Sequence record: OQ349392.1
DNA: 64,000 nucleotides
Source: Escherichia phage KIT06
Direction: 5' to 3' (one strand)
A program made the translations under genes and the position numbers. How positions within the stretch are numbered: position 1 is the stretch's first letter; the number at the start of each line of letters is the position of its first letter. The notes under the pieces were generated by a model that was not told the origin of the DNA, did not search any database, and worked only from the letters and a program-made list of their open reading frames with translations. Of the stretch, positions 11,160 to 64,000 are shown piece by piece.

Positions 11160-11522
11160 ATGAAAGCATATCAAATTCTTGAAGGCACGCATAAAGGTAC
11201 TATTTATTTTGAAGACGGTATTCAAGCACGAATTATTGTCTCTAAAACTTTTAAAGAGGACTCTTTTGTAGACCCAGAAATTTTCTATGGTTTGCATGCC
11301 CGTGAAATTGAAATTGAAACACAACCTACAGTTAAAATTGAAGGTGGTCAACACCTGAACGTTAACGTTCTGCGTCGTGAAACTCTGGAAGATGCAGTTA
11401 AGCATCCGGAAAAATATCCGCAGCTGACCATCCGTGTATCCGGTTATGCAGTTCGCTTTAACTCTCTGACTCCGGAACAGCAGCGCGACGTTATCGCTCG
11501 TACCTTTACTGAGAGTCTGTAA
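11160..11522 (+). CDS. autonomous glycyl-radical cofactor (GrcA/YfiD-like; T4 Y06I-type)
   Basis: C-terminus ...[59 protein letters not shown] with glycyl-radical motif RVSGY; 3' ~190 bp uses host-like GC-rich codons. Confidence 0.8.
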
Positions 11523-16749: not shown

Positions 16750-16912
16750 AAAGCAGATGTTTTTAATGAAGCTAATTGAAGAATATGCTAATGCAGTTTC
16801 TGACTATGAGTATTCTTCTCGTGAAAGAGGTACAGCTTTCGCAAAGGAAGAAATGAAAATCATGGTTGATGCTCACACAAAGCTTCAGAATTTTATTGAA
16901 AACGTCATTTAA
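16739..16912 (+). CDS. hypothetical small protein (57 aa)
   Basis: Not in the track (<60 aa); ATG overlaps upstream stop. Confidence 0.35.
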   Translation: MKTEKQMFLMKLIEEYANAVSDYEYSSRERGTAFAKEEMKIMVDAHTKLQNFIENVI

Positions 16913-16915
16913 TGG

Positions 16916-16944
16916 TTTACAAGTTGGCAAGGTTATGGTATAGT
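16916..16944 (+). promoter_or_regulatory. T4-type early promoter
   Basis: TTTACA-N17-TATAGT. Confidence 0.65.
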
Positions 16945-17137
16945 AATCTTGTCAACTGCCAAGGAGAAGAGAATGAAAATTTTGTTTGTTGTGTATGTGA
17001 TGATTCAATATAATTACCCAATGTTTACTTATAATCTAGTGAACAACATTATTGATATTATTCAAAGGAGTATGTAATGACAAATGAACAAGCTTTTAAG
17101 TTAAGAGAATTAATTGAAACTTTAATTGGTGAATAAT

Positions 17138-17404
17138 GTGAGCTTTCCGAAATTAGAAGTAGGTGATTTAGTCTTAACAAAATTGTGGAATGATGCTCAA
17201 TCAGTAGAAATCTGCCAATATCGTGGAGCAACAGGTAATTTGATGTACACGATTTATAATCCAGAAATTTTATTAGAGTGTCATTTGGAACGCTTTATAA
17301 AAGACACTGATAGTATGCCTTATAGTGTATCGATTGTGCGTAAATCTGATACAAAGGAATACTCTAAAATTTTAGAAAAAATTCATGCCAATAAAAAGGA
17401 TTAA
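17138..17404 (+). CDS. hypothetical protein (non-ATG start)
   Basis: ORF 17126-17404 has no in-frame ATG near its 5' end; GTG 17138 after GGTGA is most plausible. Confidence 0.3.
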   Translation: MSFPKLEVGDLVLTKLWNDAQSVEICQYRGATGNLMYTIYNPEILLECHLERFIKDTDSMPYSVSIVRKSDTKEYSKILEKIHANKKD

Positions 17405-17405
17405 T

Positions 17406-17936
17406 ATGAAACGATTAGTACTAGAAGTTAGTTCACTTTTTGGTGAATTGGCTATAGAAAAAGTAAATAATATGTATCGTTTGACGCAAGAAGACGATAT
17501 GCTGTATTTTACACCTAGTGAAATTATTCATTTAACCCAAATTGAAAAACCTTATACTGATAAAATTGTAAGCATTAATGATGAGCATAAAATTCATTTC
17601 TATTCTTTATGCCCAGGATTTAACATTGAAAGCGAGTCAATATGCTTATCAATTAATAATTGGGATAATTTTATAACTAAAATTAAATATTTTTATTATT
17701 CTAACGAAAGAAAACATGGTTTAAAATGGTTTAAAAATTGCAATGCTATTATTACTAACGCTTGTAATCAAAATTATGAAACTGTTTTAAATGTATCAAA
17801 GTGTTACGAAGAAGGAGATGTCTTAACTATTCGTCAATCGGTAAATGATGTTAATGTTGTTGTATTAAACAAAGAAGAAGCTGTTTTATTAAAGACTTAT
17901 CTTGATTCTGTCATTCCAACTATGATTTCAAAGTGA
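17406..17936 (+). CDS. hypothetical protein (paralogue A of a tandem pair)
   Basis: ATG 17406 after AAAAAGGA; C-terminal motif KTYLDSVIPTM shared with next gene. Confidence 0.5.
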   Translation: MKRLVLEVSSLFGELAIEKVNNMYRLTQEDDMLYFTPSEIIHLTQIEKPYTDKIVSINDEHKIHFYSLCPGFNIESESICLSINNWDNFITKIKYFYYSNERKHGLKWFKNCNAIITNACNQNYETVLNVSKCYEEGDVLTIRQSVNDVNVVVLNKEEAVLLKTYLDSVIPTMISK

Positions 17937-17942
17937 GGAAAT

Positions 17943-18464
17943 ATGTTTATTTCAAGTGAAAGCGGTTTAATTCGTGTTGAATTTAAAAATGACATCTTCC
18001 TTATTCAAGGAGATGATATTATTAAAATGAGTTATGATGAAATTAAGAAAATTTGTAATGCTCTTGAAAATCATGGAAAGGTGAATGCTGTCATTGATAT
18101 TGGCGATTTATGGGTGACACTTTATGAAGTATCCGAAGGATTTAACATTGAAGATGAAAACAACATCTTAGCTATTGATAAAAGAAGTGATTTGTTTGAT
18201 GTGTTAAAAGTTTATGAACAGTCAAACGGTGGAAGAAAAGCTGCATTGATTTATCAAAAACCACATTCATGCGGAACTGCTTCAATCATTTCAGATATTG
18301 AAGATGAAACTGATACTTATATGTGTATTTTAAAAGCTGGTGGTGACCGTCATCCGGATTTTATTTCTATTCGTCAAAACAATGGAGAAATTTCATTATC
18401 AAAATCAGAAGCTGAAGCTATGATTAAGTATTTAACAACTGTTACACCTTCAATGAAAGGATAA
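17943..18464 (+). CDS. hypothetical protein (paralogue B of a tandem pair)
   Basis: 173 aa; C-terminal IKYLTTVTPSM and EGFNIE segment echo the upstream gene. Confidence 0.5.
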   Translation: MFISSESGLIRVEFKNDIFLIQGDDIIKMSYDEIKKICNALENHGKVNAVIDIGDLWVTLYEVSEGFNIEDENNILAIDKRSDLFDVLKVYEQSNGGRKAALIYQKPHSCGTASIISDIEDETDTYMCILKAGGDRHPDFISIRQNNGEISLSKSEAEAMIKYLTTVTPSMKG

Positions 18465-18466
18465 TT

Positions 18467-18928
18467 ATGATTATTAATGAAAGCTCTTGGCACTATAAAT
18501 TATTCAAAATGTTTAACGACGAATGGAAACGACCTAAGACACTGTGTGCATATTTTTGGTCTATTGTTATCCCTACATTTTTCGTTTCTTTTTTCGGATG
18601 TACTATACTCGCAGGTCTAACTATCATCTGCGCAGAAATCATGCAGAAATGGCTTATTTTTGGTAGTTTATGGACTCTTATTCCATCAGCATTTATACTT
18701 GCTATTTTGCTTGTTTTACTTATTATTGGTTCATTTGTTATTCCTGCACAATTGCATGAAAAATATAAAGATTATAAATGGAAAAAGGATTATGCTTTAC
18801 ATGTAGAAAATATTGATAGAGCGTATAAAGGTTTACCTCCTATTCAACCAAAGAAATCTATTATCGTCGAATTTTTAAAAGCGCGTAAAGCTAAAGTATG
18901 TCCTGTTATTGAATATAAGGCTGAATGA
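18467..18928 (+). CDS. integral membrane protein
   Basis: 153 aa with several hydrophobic helices. Confidence 0.5.
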   Translation: MIINESSWHYKLFKMFNDEWKRPKTLCAYFWSIVIPTFFVSFFGCTILAGLTIICAEIMQKWLIFGSLWTLIPSAFILAILLVLLIIGSFVIPAQLHEKYKDYKWKKDYALHVENIDRAYKGLPPIQPKKSIIVEFLKARKAKVCPVIEYKAE

Positions 18929-19938
18929 TGAAAACAGTAATGAAAAGCTATTTTGGTAGTCATCTTTATGGAACTTCTACTCCAGAATCTGATGTAGATT
19001 TTAAAGAAATCTTTGTTCCTCCTGCTCGTGATATTCTTATCGGAAATGTTAAAGAGCATATGAGTAAAAACACTAACAACACATCATCTAAAAACACTAA
19101 AGATGATATTGACCATGAACTATACAGTCTTAAGTATTTCTTTAAATTAGCAGCAGATGGTGAAACTGTAGCATTGGATATGCTCCACACTCCACCTGAA
19201 CTGGTAGTTAAATCTGATTTGCCTGATGTATGGAAGTTTATTCAAGACAATCGTTCTCGTTTTTATACAACTAACATGAAATCTTATTTAGGATATGTCC
19301 GCAAGCAAGCTTCTAAATATGGTGTCAAGGGTTCTCGTTTGGCCGCATTGCGTGATGTATTGAAAGTAGTTAATCAAATCCCTGAGCAATGGGTTGATTA
19401 CCAAGAAGACGGTTCCATTAAGCAGCGTCGAACTAAAGTTGAAGATATTAAGCATCGTCTTCCAGAGAACGAATTCTGTGAATGGGTATTCCATAATCAT
19501 GAGAAAACAGGCCCACAAACGTTCTACACTGTGTTGGGCCGTAAATATCAGACAACGCTTTCTCTTATCGAGCTTAAGCAGTCACTGAACAAATTAGATG
19601 CTGAATATGGCGAGCGCGCTCGTAAGGCTGAAGCTAATGAAGGTATTGACTGGAAAGCTCTGAGTCATGCTTGTCGTGGTGGACTCCAACTATTGGAAAT
19701 TTACAAAACTGGTGACTTAGTCTATCCACTTCAAGACGCTCCTTTTATTCTCGACGTGAAGTTGGGTAAACATCCATTTAAAACTGTTCAAGAGTTTTTG
19801 GAAGATGTGGTCGATCAAGTAGAAGCAGCATCCATTGAAGCTTCTAAGAACGGTATGCAGCAAAAAGTAGATATGAGTTTCTGGGATGACTTCCTTGAGA
19901 GGGTTTATCTTGAAAACCACCGAAGTTATTATAAATGA
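18925..19938 (+). CDS. hypothetical protein with nucleotidyltransferase-like motif
   Basis: 337 aa; N-terminal GSHLYGTSTPESDVDF fits the G-S...D-x-D pattern of pol-beta-type nucleotidyltransferases (tentative). Confidence 0.45.
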   Translation: MMKTVMKSYFGSHLYGTSTPESDVDFKEIFVPPARDILIGNVKEHMSKNTNNTSSKNTKDDIDHELYSLKYFFKLAADGETVALDMLHTPPELVVKSDLPDVWKFIQDNRSRFYTTNMKSYLGYVRKQASKYGVKGSRLAALRDVLKVVNQIPEQWVDYQEDGSIKQRRTKVEDIKHRLPENEFCEWVFHNHEKTGPQTFYTVLGRKYQTTLSLIELKQSLNKLDAEYGERARKAEANEGIDWKALSHACRGGLQLLEIYKTGDLVYPLQDAPFILDVKLGKHPFKTVQEFLEDVVDQVEAASIEASKNGMQQKVDMSFWDDFLERVYLENHRSYYK

Positions 19939-54921: not shown

Positions 54922-55215
54922 ATGAAAAAATTTGTTTTTGCTGCAATTTTTGCTTTGGCTTCTTGTGCTGCTCAGCCTGCTATGGCGGGTTATGATAAAG
55001 ATTTGTGCGAATGGTCTATGACTGCAGATCAGACTGAGGTTGAAACTCAGATTGAAGCAGATATTATGAATATCGTTGAGCGTGATCGCCCTGAAATGAA
55101 AGCTGAAGTACAAAAACAGCTTAAGTCTGGTGGTGTAATGCAGTATAATTACGTTCTGTATTGTGATAAAAACTTCAATAATAAAAATATCATCGCTGAA
55201 GTAGTAGGTGAATAA
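54922..55215 (+). CDS. sp: Spackle periplasmic protein (superinfection exclusion)
   Basis: 97 aa with signal peptide MKKFVFAAIFALASCAAQPAMA... Confidence 0.85.
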   Translation: MKKFVFAAIFALASCAAQPAMAGYDKDLCEWSMTADQTEVETQIEADIMNIVERDRPEMKAEVQKQLKSGGVMQYNYVLYCDKNFNNKNIIAEVVGE

Positions 55216-55841
55216 TGCTCTATCAAATGCACAAGTGTAAAGACACGTACAATTATAAAGGTGCCCAGTGTTATATCATCAATCGTGAAAACGTGGGTCC
55301 AGGTCATTCGCATCAATCACGGTTTGTATTCGTTAAAAATAATGAAATTATAGCAGTTGCTAATTACATGCTTGTGACTAATGATGTTAATCCGGTGCCT
55401 TTTACGTATTATAATCTAATGGATTTGGCGTACGATTATAATTGGTTTAATCATGATAATTTGGCTCATATTGAAGGCGTAGGATTTGACATCTCTTATT
55501 CTAGTTACTCGTTGTGTCCTATGAGCCGAGCTCATAAAGAGCCTGAATATTTTTCATTTCGTCGGCGTGTAGACTTTGAACGCAGCACAGAGTATATCGG
55601 TGGAATTTTTGTTAAAGATAATCGAATTACTCGCATTATTTATCCTTTGGGCTGTGGTCAAAAAGATATTGATGTTGATTTAGACTTTACTGAAAACATC
55701 ATTAATCATATTGCTTCTGTGTATTTTGATATTGATCATAAAATTGTAATATGTGGATATGAATTACCATCAGAAAAACAGTCTAAAGTGAATGTTTCTA
55801 TTGATGACCAAATTTTTAATGCTTTTATGAATAGAGGTTAA
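55215..55841 (+). CDS. hypothetical protein in the T4 61.2 position (AdfA-like anti-DarT candidate by synteny)
   Basis: 208-aa ORF between sp and primase; assignment is positional only. Confidence 0.4.
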   Translation: MLYQMHKCKDTYNYKGAQCYIINRENVGPGHSHQSRFVFVKNNEIIAVANYMLVTNDVNPVPFTYYNLMDLAYDYNWFNHDNLAHIEGVGFDISYSSYSLCPMSRAHKEPEYFSFRRRVDFERSTEYIGGIFVKDNRITRIIYPLGCGQKDIDVDLDFTENIINHIASVYFDIDHKIVICGYELPSEKQSKVNVSIDDQIFNAFMNRG

Positions 55842-55842
55842 T

Positions 55843-56007
55843 ATGAAAACGTTTAAAGAATTTATCAAAGAAGATATGGTCGCTGGAGATTCAGGTGGTA
55901 ATCCTGAAAATATCTCTACTGGAACAACGTCAGGCGCTGTAGTAAATAAAGGTCCTGAACAGATTCCTAAAAAGAAAAAAGAGGAATCTAAAGAAAAAGA
56001 AGAGTAA
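55843..56007 (+). CDS. small CTS-bearing protein (54 aa)
   Basis: Not in the track; MKTFKEFIKE N-terminus identical in type to internal-protein CTS; Lys/Glu-rich tail. Confidence 0.4.
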   Translation: MKTFKEFIKEDMVAGDSGGNPENISTGTTSGAVVNKGPEQIPKKKKEESKEKEE

Positions 56008-56009
56008 AA

Positions 56010-57038
56010 ATGTCATCAATACCTTGGATTGATAATGAGTTTGCATACCGTGCGCTAGCTCATTTACCTAAATTCACACAAGTAAATAATAGTTCAACTT
56101 TTAAATTACGGTTTAGATGCCCTGTTTGTGGAGATTCAAAAACCGACCAAAATAAAGCCCGTGGATGGTATTATGGTGATAATAATGAAGGAAATATTCA
56201 TTGTTATAACTGTAACTATCATGCACCAATCGGAATATATTTAAAGGAGTTTGAACCTGATTTATATCGTGAGTATATCTTTGAAATAAGAAAAGAAAAA
56301 GGTAAAAGTCGTCCAGTAGAAAAACCTAAAGAACTTCCTAAACAACCTGAGAAGAAAATAATTAAATCTCTTCCGTCATGTATTAGATTAGATAAACTGG
56401 CGGAAGACCATCCAATTATAAAATACGTAAAAGCTCGCTGTATTCCAAAGGATAAATGGAAATATCTTTGGTTTACAACCGAATGGCCTAAATTAGTTAA
56501 TAGTATAGCACCAGGAACATACAAAAAGGAAATACCTGAGCCCCGTCTTGTTATTCCAATTTATAATGCTAATGGAAAAGCTGAGTCTTTTCAAGGACGT
56601 GCATTAAAGAAAGATGCTCCCCAAAAATATATCACAATCAAAGCTTATCCTGAGGCAACAAAAATCTATGGAGTCGAACGAGTCAAAGATGGTGATGTAT
56701 ATGTTCTAGAAGGACCTATAGATTCACTTTTTATTGAAAACGGTATAGCTATTACGGGTGGTCAATTAGACCTAGAAATTGTTCCATTTAAAGATAGACG
56801 TGTATGGGTTTTAGATAATGAACCTCGTCACCCTGACACTATTAAACGAATGACTAAATTAGTTGATGCAGGAGAAAGGGTTATGTTTTGGGACAAATCT
56901 CCCTGGAAATCAAAAGATGTTAATGATATGATTAGAAAGGAAGGTGCAACCCCTGAACAAATTATGGAATATATGAAAAATAATATTGCACAGGGGTTGA
57001 TGGCTAAAATGCGGCTATCTAAATATGCTAAGATTTAA
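56010..57038 (+). CDS. 61: DNA primase gp61
   Basis: 342 aa with zinc-binding CPVCGDS...CYNCNYH and TOPRIM-like core. Confidence 0.93.
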   Translation: MSSIPWIDNEFAYRALAHLPKFTQVNNSSTFKLRFRCPVCGDSKTDQNKARGWYYGDNNEGNIHCYNCNYHAPIGIYLKEFEPDLYREYIFEIRKEKGKSRPVEKPKELPKQPEKKIIKSLPSCIRLDKLAEDHPIIKYVKARCIPKDKWKYLWFTTEWPKLVNSIAPGTYKKEIPEPRLVIPIYNANGKAESFQGRALKKDAPQKYITIKAYPEATKIYGVERVKDGDVYVLEGPIDSLFIENGIAITGGQLDLEIVPFKDRRVWVLDNEPRHPDTIKRMTKLVDAGERVMFWDKSPWKSKDVNDMIRKEGATPEQIMEYMKNNIAQGLMAKMRLSKYAKI

Positions 57039-57235
57039 ATTAACCCAACTAAAGCAAATGCTAAATCTACGAATGTATCAAGAGTAATTACTGGAATACT
57101 AACGCCATGAGCAATAGCAACTGGCGATAAAACAAAATTCCAAAGTAAAATTCCTATCATAGCAGAAATAGTAAAAGCTATACGTTTTTTATTACCTTTG
57201 ATGGCATTAACAAGTGCCATTAATTTTTGTACCAT
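57035..57235 (-). CDS. small membrane protein on the opposite strand
   Basis: 66 aa, two hydrophobic helices; strong minus-strand AAGGAGG 5 nt before ATG. Confidence 0.55.
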   Translation of the reverse strand: MVQKLMALVNAIKGNKKRIAFTISAMIGILLWNFVLSPVAIAHGVSIPVITLDTFVDLAFALVGLI

Positions 57236-57248
57236 ATGTCCTCCTTAT

Positions 57249-57272
57249 TGCTTTATATATTTATTGTATAAT
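57249..57272 (+). promoter_or_regulatory. MotA-dependent middle promoter
   Basis: MotA box TTGCTTTA, 11-bp spacer, -10 TATAAT; upstream of gene 56. Confidence 0.55.
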
Positions 57273-57308
57273 TAATCTACTAACCCATGAATTGAAAGGA
57301 AAAATAAC

Positions 57309-57827
57309 ATGCCACATTTTAACGAATGTAGTCATCTGATCGAAGGCGCTGATAAAGCTCAAAATGAATACTGGGATATTCTCGGTGATGAAAAAGACCC
57401 GCTGCAGGTTATGCTTGATATGCAGAAATCTTTGCAGGTTCGTTTAGCTAAAGATAAACCTGAATATAACCGTCATCCTGATGATTTGGCTACTGCTGGT
57501 GAAGTTGTTGATTGGCTGCGTAATCAGAAAGATTATATTGATGATGAATTCCGCGAACTTCTGACTTCTCTTGGCGGTATGAGCAATGGCGAAAAAGATG
57601 CATCTGCTGTATGGAAACCTTGGAAGTCACAGCACGGTGAACGCCGTGAAACTCTAATTACTGATTTGTCTCCACAAGACCAGTTAGAAATTAAATTCGA
57701 AATGATTGATATTCTTCATTTCGTTCTGAATATGTTCCAAGGTCTCGGTCTTACGGCTGAAGAAATCTTTAAACTTTATTATCTGAAAAATGCTGAAAAC
57801 TTCGCTCGTCAAGATCGAGGTTATTAA
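57309..57827 (+). CDS. 56: dCTP pyrophosphatase gp56
   Basis: 172 aa M(P)HFNEC(S)HLIEG...NEYWDILGDEKDPLQVMLDMQ...LYYLKNAENFARQDRGY. Confidence 0.92.
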   Translation: MPHFNECSHLIEGADKAQNEYWDILGDEKDPLQVMLDMQKSLQVRLAKDKPEYNRHPDDLATAGEVVDWLRNQKDYIDDEFRELLTSLGGMSNGEKDASAVWKPWKSQHGERRETLITDLSPQDQLEIKFEMIDILHFVLNMFQGLGLTAEEIFKLYYLKNAENFARQDRGY

Positions 57828-58036
57828 TGGCTCGTTTAAATAAACGCCAGCTTAAGAAAGCCCGCAAGAAACGTATTGACCAGCTATTTAAAAATTATGA
57901 CAAAGAGCTCGTATGTGAGCTCTTATCTAATCAGCTTCGTGTGGTTGATTGGGTTGATTGGGTTGTAGAAGAAGGTCCTGATGAAATTTTTGTCAGCGAA
58001 GAAGCCTTAAAATTAATTATAGAACATTCAAAATGA
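57827..58036 (+). CDS. hypothetical small protein (occupies the T4 segF position)
   Basis: 69 aa; contains 9-bp tandem repeat encoding VDWVDWV. Confidence 0.45.
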   Translation: MARLNKRQLKKARKKRIDQLFKNYDKELVCELLSNQLRVVDWVDWVVEEGPDEIFVSEEALKLIIEHSK

Positions 58037-58242
58037 AATTTGATTTTTATGCATGGCAAAAAGCCGGGAGACCGGCTAGTCGAGCATTTGGTTCTGATGG
58101 ATATAATATTAGAGCCCATTGGAAATTTAATGCTCCAGAAGATTATTCTCCGGTAATTATTAACGGCGATGTTGTTATATTAACTAAAATCGGGTATTTT
58201 AACGTTCCGCGAGAATTTATTATAAATAATCATGTAATTTAA
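58033..58242 (+). CDS. hypothetical small protein
   Basis: 69 aa, ATGA overlap. Confidence 0.45.
   Translation: MKFDFYAWQKAGRPASRAFGSDGYNIRAHWKFNAPEDYSPVIINGDVVILTKIGYFNVPREFIINNHVI
58231..58238 (+). promoter_or_regulatory. T4 late promoter (TATAAATA)
   Basis: Exact TATAAATA 21 bp before soc ATG. Confidence 0.65.
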
Positions 58243-62061: not shown

Positions 62062-62808
62062 ATGAAACTGTCTAAAAATCAAATTCGTAAAATTACACGT
62101 CGTTTAGAGCATACTCAGGCATCTGCCAAAAGACGTTCTAAAGATTTTAACTTAGACTTCAATTACATTAAGAACATTTTAGATCAGAAAGTTTGCGCTT
62201 ACTCGGGAGAACCTTTTGATAATCGTATTGAAGGAGAGAAATTATCGTTAGAACGTTTTGATAATAACGTTGGATACATTAAAGGGAATGTTATTGCAGT
62301 AAAGAAAAAGTATAATACATTTCGTTCTGATTATACTTTAGAAGAGTTGATTGAAAAGCGTGATTTATTTGCTTTGCGAATTGGTCGTTCATCTGCGAAA
62401 AAAGTTCATAAACTAAATTTAGATGAAAAGAAATGGGCTAAAATCAAAAAGACTTATAATCAAATTAAAGCTATACAGAAAAAACGTGAAAACCGAATTG
62501 AGCACATTTCTCAGCTTTCTAAATCAAAACAAACTTCTGACGTTAAGCTAACGATTATAGCACTCAAAGCTCGTATTGATGGTTCTCGTATAGCAGAAGG
62601 CGCTGAAGTTGTTAAATTGAACGTTCTTCTTAAAGGCTCGGATTGGAAAACTGTGAAAAAGTTGTCAGAAGCAGAAATGCAATATGATATGTGTGATAAA
62701 ATTATTCAAGGTGTAGAGCGGTATCAAAACTTGTCTTTTATTGATAAACTTAAACTGAAAAGAGGATACCCGCTAAATTGTTCAATTTTTAAACTTATCC
62801 GAGGATAA
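62062..62808 (+). CDS. srd: Srd (sigma-like protein)
   Basis: 248-aa basic protein between modA and dda as in T4. Confidence 0.65.
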   Translation: MKLSKNQIRKITRRLEHTQASAKRRSKDFNLDFNYIKNILDQKVCAYSGEPFDNRIEGEKLSLERFDNNVGYIKGNVIAVKKKYNTFRSDYTLEELIEKRDLFALRIGRSSAKKVHKLNLDEKKWAKIKKTYNQIKAIQKKRENRIEHISQLSKSKQTSDVKLTIIALKARIDGSRIAEGAEVVKLNVLLKGSDWKTVKKLSEAEMQYDMCDKIIQGVERYQNLSFIDKLKLKRGYPLNCSIFKLIRG

Positions 62809-63121: not shown

Positions 63122-64000
63122 CATTTGATGATTTGACAGAAGGCCAGAAAAATGCCTTTAACATCGTTATGAGGGCTATTAAAGAAAAGAAACATCATGT
63201 AACTATTAATGGACCTGCTGGTACTGGTAAGACTACTCTTACTAAGTTCATCATTGAAGCCTTAATATCTACAGGCGAAACTGGCATTATTTTAGCAGCT
63301 CCTACTCATGCAGCTAAAAAGATTCTTTCAAAACTGTCAGGGAAAGAAGCGAGTACTATTCACAGTATTCTTAAAATTAACCCAGTAACATACGAAGAAA
63401 ACGTTCTTTTTGAGCAAAAAGAAGTACCGGATTTGGCTAAATGCAGAGTACTAATCTGCGACGAAGTGTCAATGTATGATAGAAAGCTATTTAAAATTCT
63501 GCTTTCAACTATTCCACCTTGGTGTACTATAATTGGAATAGGCGATAATAAGCAAATTAGACCTGTTGACCCAGGAGAAAATACTGCTTATATCAGTCCA
63601 TTCTTTACGCACAAAGACTTTTATCAGTGTGAACTCACTGAAGTTAAACGCAGTAATGCTCCTATTATTGATGTAGCTACTGATGTTCGTAACGGTAAGT
63701 GGATTTATGATAAAATTGTTGACGGACATGGAGTACGTGGATTTACTGGTGATACCGCTTTACGCGATTTTATGGTAAATTATTTTTCAATCGTCAAATC
63801 ACTAGATGATTTGTTTGAAAATCGCGTAATGGCATTTACGAATAAATCTGTTGATAAGTTAAATAGCATTATTCGCAAAAAGATTTTTGAAACCGATAAA
63901 GATTTTATCGTTGGTGAAATTATTGTAATGCAGGAACCATTAATTAAAACATATAAAATTGATGGAAAGCCTGTGTCAGAAATTATTTTTAATAACGGGC
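63118..64000 (+). CDS. dda: Dda DNA helicase (5' part; continues beyond window)
   Basis: MTFDDLTEGQKNAFNIVMRAIKEKKHHVTINGPAGTGKTTLTKF... Walker A GPAGTGKTT; no stop before window end. Confidence 0.9.
   Translation, partial: MTFDDLTEGQKNAFNIVMRAIKEKKHHVTINGPAGTGKTTLTKFIIEALISTGETGIILAAPTHAAKKILSKLSGKEASTIHSILKINPVTYEENVLFEQKEVPDLAKCRVLICDEVSMYDRKLFKILLSTIPPWCTIIGIGDNKQIRPVDPGENTAYISPFFTHKDFYQCELTEVKRSNAPIIDVATDVRNGKWIYDKIVDGHGVRGFTGDTALRDFMVNYFSIVKSLDDLFENRVMAFTNKSVDKLNSIIRKKIFETDKDFIVGEIIVMQEPLIKTYKIDGKPVSEIIFNNG

Follow-up and report, generated by a model that had tools for sequence, protein, structure and literature searches.

A conserved small membrane protein gene with a predicted late promoter, convergent with the primase gene of T4-like phages

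A Minus-Strand Gene Between Genes 61 and 56

A 64,000-nucleotide stretch of the Escherichia phage KIT06 genome (OQ349392.1), termed here the window, shares 95-98% identity with hundreds of genomes of Tequatrovirus (T4-like phages), and its plus strand runs in the early (counter-clockwise) direction of T4. Between gene 61, encoding DNA primase, and gene 56, encoding dCTPase, lies a minus-strand open reading frame (ORF) of 66 amino acids (aa), which an earlier reading of the bare letters (the original prediction) had proposed to be the gene of a two-helix membrane protein with its own promoter. Here we describe this small ORF as a genuine conserved gene, whose upstream sequence points to transcription late in infection, and weigh what its product might do. 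The main features of the locus are given below.

57035-57235, minus strand: coding sequence (CDS) of the small membrane protein, 66 aa (ATG at 57235-57233, TAA at 57037-57035; phrog_2024 / RB32ORF030w)
57240-57246, minus strand: Shine-Dalgarno sequence AAGGAGG, followed by ACAT and then the ATG
57258-57265, minus strand: late-promoter-like motif AATAAATA, 22 nucleotides (nt) before the ATG, matching TATAAATA at 7 of 8 positions, with A as the variable first base
56010-57038, plus strand: gene 61, DNA primase (phrog_47, expectation value (E) 8e-107)
57309-57827, plus strand: gene 56, dCTPase, divergent from the small ORF, with the region equivalent to T4 oriA at the 5′ end of the gene
57198-57228, plus strand: terminator-like hairpin and T-run for gene 61 (11-bp stem, TTTTT tail), inside codons 4-13 of the small ORF
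57249-57272, plus strand: MotA-type middle promoter of gene 56 (TGCTTTA at 57249-57255, TATAAT at 57267-57272)

The ORF is intact from its ATG start to its TAA stop, as had been proposed, and the AAGGAGG site described in front of it is in place, although its spacer measures 4 nt and not 5 nt. A strong Shine-Dalgarno sequence precedes the ATG in all of the orthologous loci. The stop codons of the small ORF and gene 61 share 4 base pairs (bp) and the two genes converge, in agreement with the original prediction. Its statement that nothing else is encoded between genes 61 and 56 also holds, since no plus-strand ORF of at least 50 aa is found in 57039-57308. As for the wider claim that the window has no other opposite-strand gene, the minus-strand ORFs of at least 60 aa elsewhere in the window are at least 64% covered by a plus-strand ORF, with one exception (63505-63729) that lies inside the dda helicase gene, which extends past the window end, and 10 out of 10 tRNA genes are on the plus strand. 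Because the other minus-strand ORFs overlap plus-strand genes in this way and the tRNA genes all lie on the plus strand, the small ORF is, as far as this is testable, the only credible minus-strand gene in 64 kilobases (kb).

Conservation and Coding Evidence

The window adds no new entity to the catalogs. Hundreds of related genomes already list the ORF as a hypothetical protein; it carries the older annotation name RB32ORF030w and matches the phrog_2024 profile with an E of 1.9e-30, residues 2-66 aligning with profile positions 1-65 of 65. It belongs to the same family as RB32ORF030w, VR7ORF033w and the other phrog_2024 proteins and has the same length, position and orientation, with no difference between them; this family has no assigned function and no annotation in the T4 reference (RefSeq) record. 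What the existing annotation does not make evident is the late-promoter architecture of the gene, its near-universal presence in Tequatrovirus, T4 included though unannotated, the swapping of its alleles, and its link to late operons of unrelated phages.

A tblastn search retrieved 692 phage records with the ORF, including T4 and T6. It is present at 80% identity or more in 502 records, and the primase at 95% identity or more in 501 records, therefore practically every Tequatrovirus has the ORF. The T4 copy (92% identity) is located at 17738-17938 on the plus strand of NC_000866.4 (5739-5939 of locus L002), where RefSeq holds no CDS in the 309 bp between dam (16846-17625) and 61 (17935-18963). 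T4 is among the best-annotated viruses, yet its RefSeq record is without this conserved gene, which some 950 relatives carry.

The convergent position beside the primase 3′ end and upstream of gene 56 is kept in at least eight Tevenvirinae genera. Besides Tequatrovirus, a member is found at the primase in Mosigvirus, Gaprivervirus, Kanagawavirus, Marfavirus, Gelderlandvirus and Jiaodavirus, and also in a metagenomic T4-like contig. The family member is absent from the more remote T4-like phages Krischvirus, Serratia phage 4S, Acinetobacter phage AM101 and Klebsiella phage KM2, where gene 56 directly follows 61. Overall identity across genera goes down to 15-30%, while W32, N33 and P38 are invariant and at least 90% of the 31 sequences compared retain A40, G44, P48 and V50; the family core W-N-[FLY]-x3-P-x-A-x3-G-x3-P-x-V is present in the protein of the window.

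Substitution patterns follow the reading frame. Within Tequatrovirus, the ratio of nonsynonymous to synonymous substitution rates (dN/dS) exceeds 1 in both shifted frames but amounts to 0.15-0.21 when the ORF is read in its own frame, and variable sites pooled within genera are distributed over the three codon positions as 18:5:25 (p=0.0016). By our own estimate, 66 stop-free codons would occur by chance with a probability of about 0.008 per frame at the A+T content of about 65%. The ORF is more than such a chance occurrence because conservation, purifying selection and the promoter motif each add independent support, and it is a genuine conserved gene.

A Predicted Late Promoter

No sigma-70-like site was found on the minus strand upstream of the ORF. 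The late consensus of T4, TATAAATA, is located at -13 to -6 of the transcript, and its first T is poorly conserved among T4 relatives (PMC1524935). Combined with the position of AATAAATA at 57258-57265, this predicts a transcription start at about 57252 on the minus strand and a leader of 17 nt. The original prediction had reasoned that a gene opposing the early flow needs its own promoter upstream of the ATG, and a predicted promoter is indeed found there; its type, very probably T4 late (gp55) rather than sigma-70 early, had gone unseen.

The core of this motif is rare in the window. ATAAATA occurs 11 times on both strands against 40 expected, which is about four-fold under-represented and lower than in every shuffle, and only four copies are on the minus strand in 64 kb; such a depletion would be expected if late promoters arising by accident are avoided. 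ATAAATA followed by a Shine-Dalgarno sequence and an ATG is seen at e (8587/8600), at a 70-aa ORF upstream of rI (15132), at 49 (29037), at soc (58222) and at the small ORF. Of these, e (lysozyme), 49 (endonuclease VII) and soc are established late-transcribed T4 genes. As late genes residing in the early region, they share with the small ORF the order of (T/A)ATAAATA, a short leader with Shine-Dalgarno sequence, and ATG. However, soc, e and 49 run with the early flow on the plus strand, whereas the small ORF is inverted and convergent with the primase gene and, unlike in these three, its late motif lies within the spacer of the gene 56 middle promoter.

Among the orthologues, (N)ATAAATA is found 15-22 nt before the ATG in seven genera and in a metagenomic locus (L032), that is, in every examined lineage except Gelderlandvirus. 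The upstream flanks of the orthologues are unalignable between genera, yet the motif is retained. A perfect TATAAATA stands at three loci (Kosakonia phage 305, Klebsiella phage P545 and Enterobacter phage ZX14), and the T4 copy is preceded by GATAAATA and AAAGGAGG. Given that the motif is rare in the window, is kept across orthologues and has no sigma-70-like competitor, the small ORF is very probably a late gene with its own gp55-type promoter.

Three further late-like motifs lie on the minus strand of the window at 1310-1317 (TATAAATA), 11201-11208 (AATAAATA) and 55637-55644 (GATAAATA), inside plus-strand genes and with no Shine-Dalgarno sequence or ORF following. These may be late antisense starts or chance occurrences. 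A T4 differential RNA sequencing preprint gives 150 phage transcription start sites (TSSs), 22 of which are antisense (bioRxiv 10.1101/2024.04.04.588121).

Transcriptional Surroundings

In T4, the homologue of the gene 56 middle promoter is P(M) 16.53; it has an annotated mot-box and -10 and also primes oriA. The T4 dam-56 intergenic sequence is likewise homologous, and the record of phage fPS-2 carries the label “predicted middle promoter”. The minus-strand late motif occupies the spacer that separates MotA box from -10 in this plus-strand promoter, back-to-back with it, and the overlapping MotA middle and gp55 late promoters would make a compact temporal strand switch within the same 25 bp. 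Convergent transcription with gene 61 is probably separated in time, early and middle on the plus strand and late on the minus strand, because the predicted promoter is of the late and not of the sigma-70 early type.

The terminator-like hairpin of gene 61 lies within the first codons of the ORF, therefore gene 61 transcripts would be antisense to most of the ORF before they end. The hairpin is part of a 91-nt stretch (57170-57260) with a minimum free energy of -17.2 kcal/mol (z -3.1), and the fPS-2 record has an annotated terminator at the same place. The hairpin is confined to Tequatrovirus and does not occur in the other genera, which rules out the gene 61 terminator as the cause of family conservation. 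On the minus strand downstream of the ORF, no terminator-like site is met until 52546-52526, about 4.5 kb away, and thus a late transcript could run antisense through gene 61, the following three genes, and beyond.

55843-56007, plus strand: 61.1
55215-55841, plus strand: 61.2
54922-55215, plus strand: sp

Such an antisense run into the primase and helicase genes could be a side effect of late transcription. An Rfam scan of 56800-57500 returned noise only.

The Predicted Protein and its Searches

Residues 1-18 of the protein contain five basic and zero acidic residues, while residues 18-66 are continuously hydrophobic with D53 and D57 as the only acidic residues. No basic residue occurs past position 18, the C-terminus (...AFALVGLI) is without a charged hydrophilic tail, and no lipobox or signal peptide was found. 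The AlphaFold2 model (31-sequence alignment; predicted local distance difference test score of 80) has helices at 2-14 (amphipathic), 16-42 and 52-63, the last two separated by a loop (43-51). Hydropathy, charge and this model agree on a small membrane protein. That it has two helices, as first thought, is reflected in two hydropathy peaks (19-41 and 45-66), but the model turns these into one long helix plus a short C-terminal helix, which bears the idea out in part only. The predicted architecture is one confident transmembrane helix plus a hydrophobic C-terminal helix, and for the latter a membrane span and a position at the periplasmic interface are both possible. The positive-inside rule would place the N-terminus in the cytoplasm. 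The conserved residues lie close together, towards the outer end of the long helix and within the loop.

Characterised relatives were sought at several levels. Pfam gave no family at E up to 10, holin families included; none of 31 family members matched NCBIfam or PADLOC models; a sequence profile search of PDB returned nothing above noise; and a fold search with the AlphaFold2 model found no match in PDB and only its own orthologue in BFVD. Profile comparison by hhalign gave probabilities of 0.5% with T4 Imm and 0.4% with T4 RI, and co-distribution with RI over 965 records was a clade-level, non-specific effect. An exhaustive hidden Markov model (HMM) search of 1.8 billion representatives retrieved only 18 clusters of small proteins, among which there were no bacterial or characterised relatives. 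Literature on RB32ORF030w, on T4 ribosome profiling and small ORFs, and on T4 TSS mapping yielded nothing on the small gene. Several homologues carry names such as “Holin”, “putative head morphogenesis protein”, “dCTP pyrophosphatase” and “DNA packaging ATPase”, which in our judgement were transferred in error during annotation. In the T6 record, for instance, the dCTPase is called “ferredoxin”-similar, and many product names there are wrong transfers.

Allele Variation and Remote Relatives

At least four diverged subtypes of the small protein occur at the same locus. Kanagawavirus phages 305 and ZX14 have primases that are 98% identical and small proteins that are 35% identical; for the Gelderlandvirus phages SEA1 and STP4-a the corresponding values are 91% and 15%. 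Divergent subtypes beside a near-identical primase mean that the locus behaves like an exchangeable cassette. In Gaprivervirus (VR7-like; loci L005 and L017-L019), an A-type and then a B-type gene stand in tandem (1495-1692 and 1701-1901), 9 nt apart. This tandem pair fills the gap before the primase gene, and in L019 the second copy is apparently N-terminally truncated. In T6, an ATT is found at the start-codon site (L007, 1501-1503) and the record annotates a shorter CDS from Met6, while in phage ECCR664 (L006, about 1400-1650) the orthologue is frameshifted between its N-terminal and membrane parts, either as a pseudogene or by a sequencing error in this incomplete 134-kb record.

Several of the 18 clusters come from contigs unlike T4, yet still belong clearly to phrog_2024 (E 1e-9 to 6e-11). 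Three independent contigs carry, all on one strand, tail-fibre/tail-tip genes followed by a module as listed here.

L026 3260-4210, L028 3272-4159 and L029 3263-4153: 94-aa protein, endonuclease VII homologue, phrog_2024 member

The 94-aa neighbour has an N-terminal membrane anchor and a coiled coil; a tblastn search with it found no annotated phage. In a fourth contig host genes begin directly after the family member, and a lysozyme gene is about 1.5 kb away. Hints of a resemblance of the 94-aa and an 81-aa neighbour to XhlA, BhlA or DUF2730-type lysis proteins all fell below threshold. Judged from these gene neighbours, the remote homologues are in late/structural operons of unrelated phages. 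A 2-kb metagenomic contig (L031, 129-1383) encodes a phrog_2024-like 59-aa protein and, directly after it, a 352-aa protein with a RelA/SpoT domain.

Possible Function

We propose that late in infection RNA polymerase with gp55, gp33 and the gp45 clamp would start at about 57252 from AATAAATA, in the direction opposing the early and middle transcription units, and that the 17-nt leader with its AAGGAGG would lead to translation of the 66-aa protein. This would become embedded in the inner membrane, its basic N-terminus (+5) lying in the cytoplasm and being followed by the long transmembrane helix at about 16-42, the loop and the hydrophobic C-terminal helix. The W32-N33...P38...G44...P48 cluster would be the likely contact surface for a membrane partner, and helix-helix binding might modulate lysis timing or lysis inhibition, or block or sense secondary phages. 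We infer a late role in the envelope because the gene appears to be late and its remote homologues stand at the distal end of tail/late operons; late transcription itself, topology, partner and phenotype are all part of this inference. That the ORF is a real membrane protein gene driven by a late promoter is the component in which we place strong confidence. An accessory role in lysis timing or lysis inhibition is the single most likely function, from the timing and the neighbours of the remote relatives, and is put forward tentatively. For the explanation as a whole, a probability of roughly 0.6 is our compromise figure.

The likeness to the T4 antiholin RI, to class II holins/pinholins and to the “releasin” gp25 of phage Mu is one of outline only, all being small, late and membrane-embedded; the anchored coiled-coil protein beside the remote relatives is a further parallel. 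The small protein differs from these lysis regulators in that neither its sequence nor its profile resembles theirs, it ends without a charged tail, and its gene is not linked to an endolysin gene.

Several observations weigh against our explanation. At the promoter, Gelderlandvirus carries TATTAAATA in place of the late motif at its two loci, and the first base of the motif is A in the window, G in T4 and C in VR7 instead of T. The ATT of T6 and the frameshift of ECCR664 indicate that the gene is probably dispensable. The differences between alleles fit an arms-race or specificity role at least as well as lysis, and the searches described above gave no sequence or fold resemblance to any characterised protein. 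The known lysis set of T4 is already complete, which leaves a lysis role as accessory only.

The closest alternative is a late-made membrane protein for exclusion, competition or anti-defence with a variable partner, which we regard as somewhat less likely than the lysis role and which is kept close behind it by the cassette-like exchange of alleles. The partner could be a competing phage or a protein of the host's envelope or defences, and production late in infection would shield the infected cell or its progeny. The subtypes swapped between phages with near-identical primases and the tandem A and B paralogues of Gaprivervirus would suit such a role, as would the place of the remote homologues after tail-fibre/tail-tip genes and close to the ends of prophages. 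Such places are common sites of exclusion genes and morons; phi80 cor and T5 llp, which follow tail genes, are examples. T4 Imm and Sp, phi80 Cor and T5 Llp are all small envelope proteins, as here, and sp is only 2 kb away. That said, Imm and Sp, the exclusion proteins known from T4, are made early, and a protein made late would suit exclusion poorly; the promoter of the small ORF is of the late and not of the early type, there is no similarity to Imm or to PADLOC models, and selection within Tequatrovirus is purifying rather than diversifying.

A function at the RNA or DNA level, in which late antisense transcription shuts down the primase and helicase genes and/or the locus terminates gene 61, with the ORF as an incidental passenger, appears improbable. 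The long run of minus strand free of terminator-like sites and the hairpin inside the ORF would allow it, but it is the protein that is conserved between genera in which the DNA can no longer be aligned, the substitution pattern is that of coding sequence, the hairpin is a Tequatrovirus feature and Rfam has no match. Moreover, in other phages the family genes run in the direction of their operon, and no primase gene is close by. An antisense effect added to the protein function is possible.

We consider it slightly less probable still that the gene is an early or constitutive hydrophobic toxin, or a true holin, expressed from a sigma-70 promoter and killing the cell or making it permeable. Its small size, hydrophobicity and two hydropathy peaks are in keeping with this, as is the one UniProt homologue entry labelled “Holin”. 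The upstream sequence, with a late motif and no sigma-70-like promoter, argues otherwise, and so do the failure to match any Pfam holin family, the modelling of the second segment as a 12-residue hydrophobic helix with no charged tail after it, and the lack of an adjacent endolysin gene in T4-like phages. The holin of T4 is, besides, already known as gpt. Finally, a chance ORF in an AT-rich spacer, which its absence from the T4 RefSeq annotation and the lack of a known domain might suggest, is effectively refuted by the conservation, selection, Shine-Dalgarno and promoter evidence.

Returning to the late membrane protein that we favour, a more speculative idea is that it represents an unrecognised late membrane component of T-even phages, either a partner in lysis inhibition/holin control or a late specificity determinant in conflicts with interchangeable alleles. 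That such a component escaped notice for decades could be explained by its omission from the reference annotation of T4 and by its transcription in the direction opposite to the early genes around it. If a role in lysis timing, lysis inhibition or exclusion is true, the gene would offer a small, genetically tractable handle on open T4 questions, and allele swapping at a fixed locus would mark phage-phage or phage-host conflict.

Variable Slots Around the Locus

The slot between the small ORF and gene 56 (57236-57308) is variable and holds no gene in this phage. In T4 it is occupied by the dam methylase gene (compared in L002, 4787-5935), and in fPS-2, GRNsp7, LH2 and others by a homing endonuclease gene (compared in L001, 3637-4358). 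The T4 gene segF, which follows gene 56, is absent from the window and is replaced by two 69-aa ORFs (57827-58036 and 58033-58242). Upstream of srd/dda, a basic 248-aa ORF on the plus strand (62062-62808) resembles by eye an insertion of the homing-endonuclease type.

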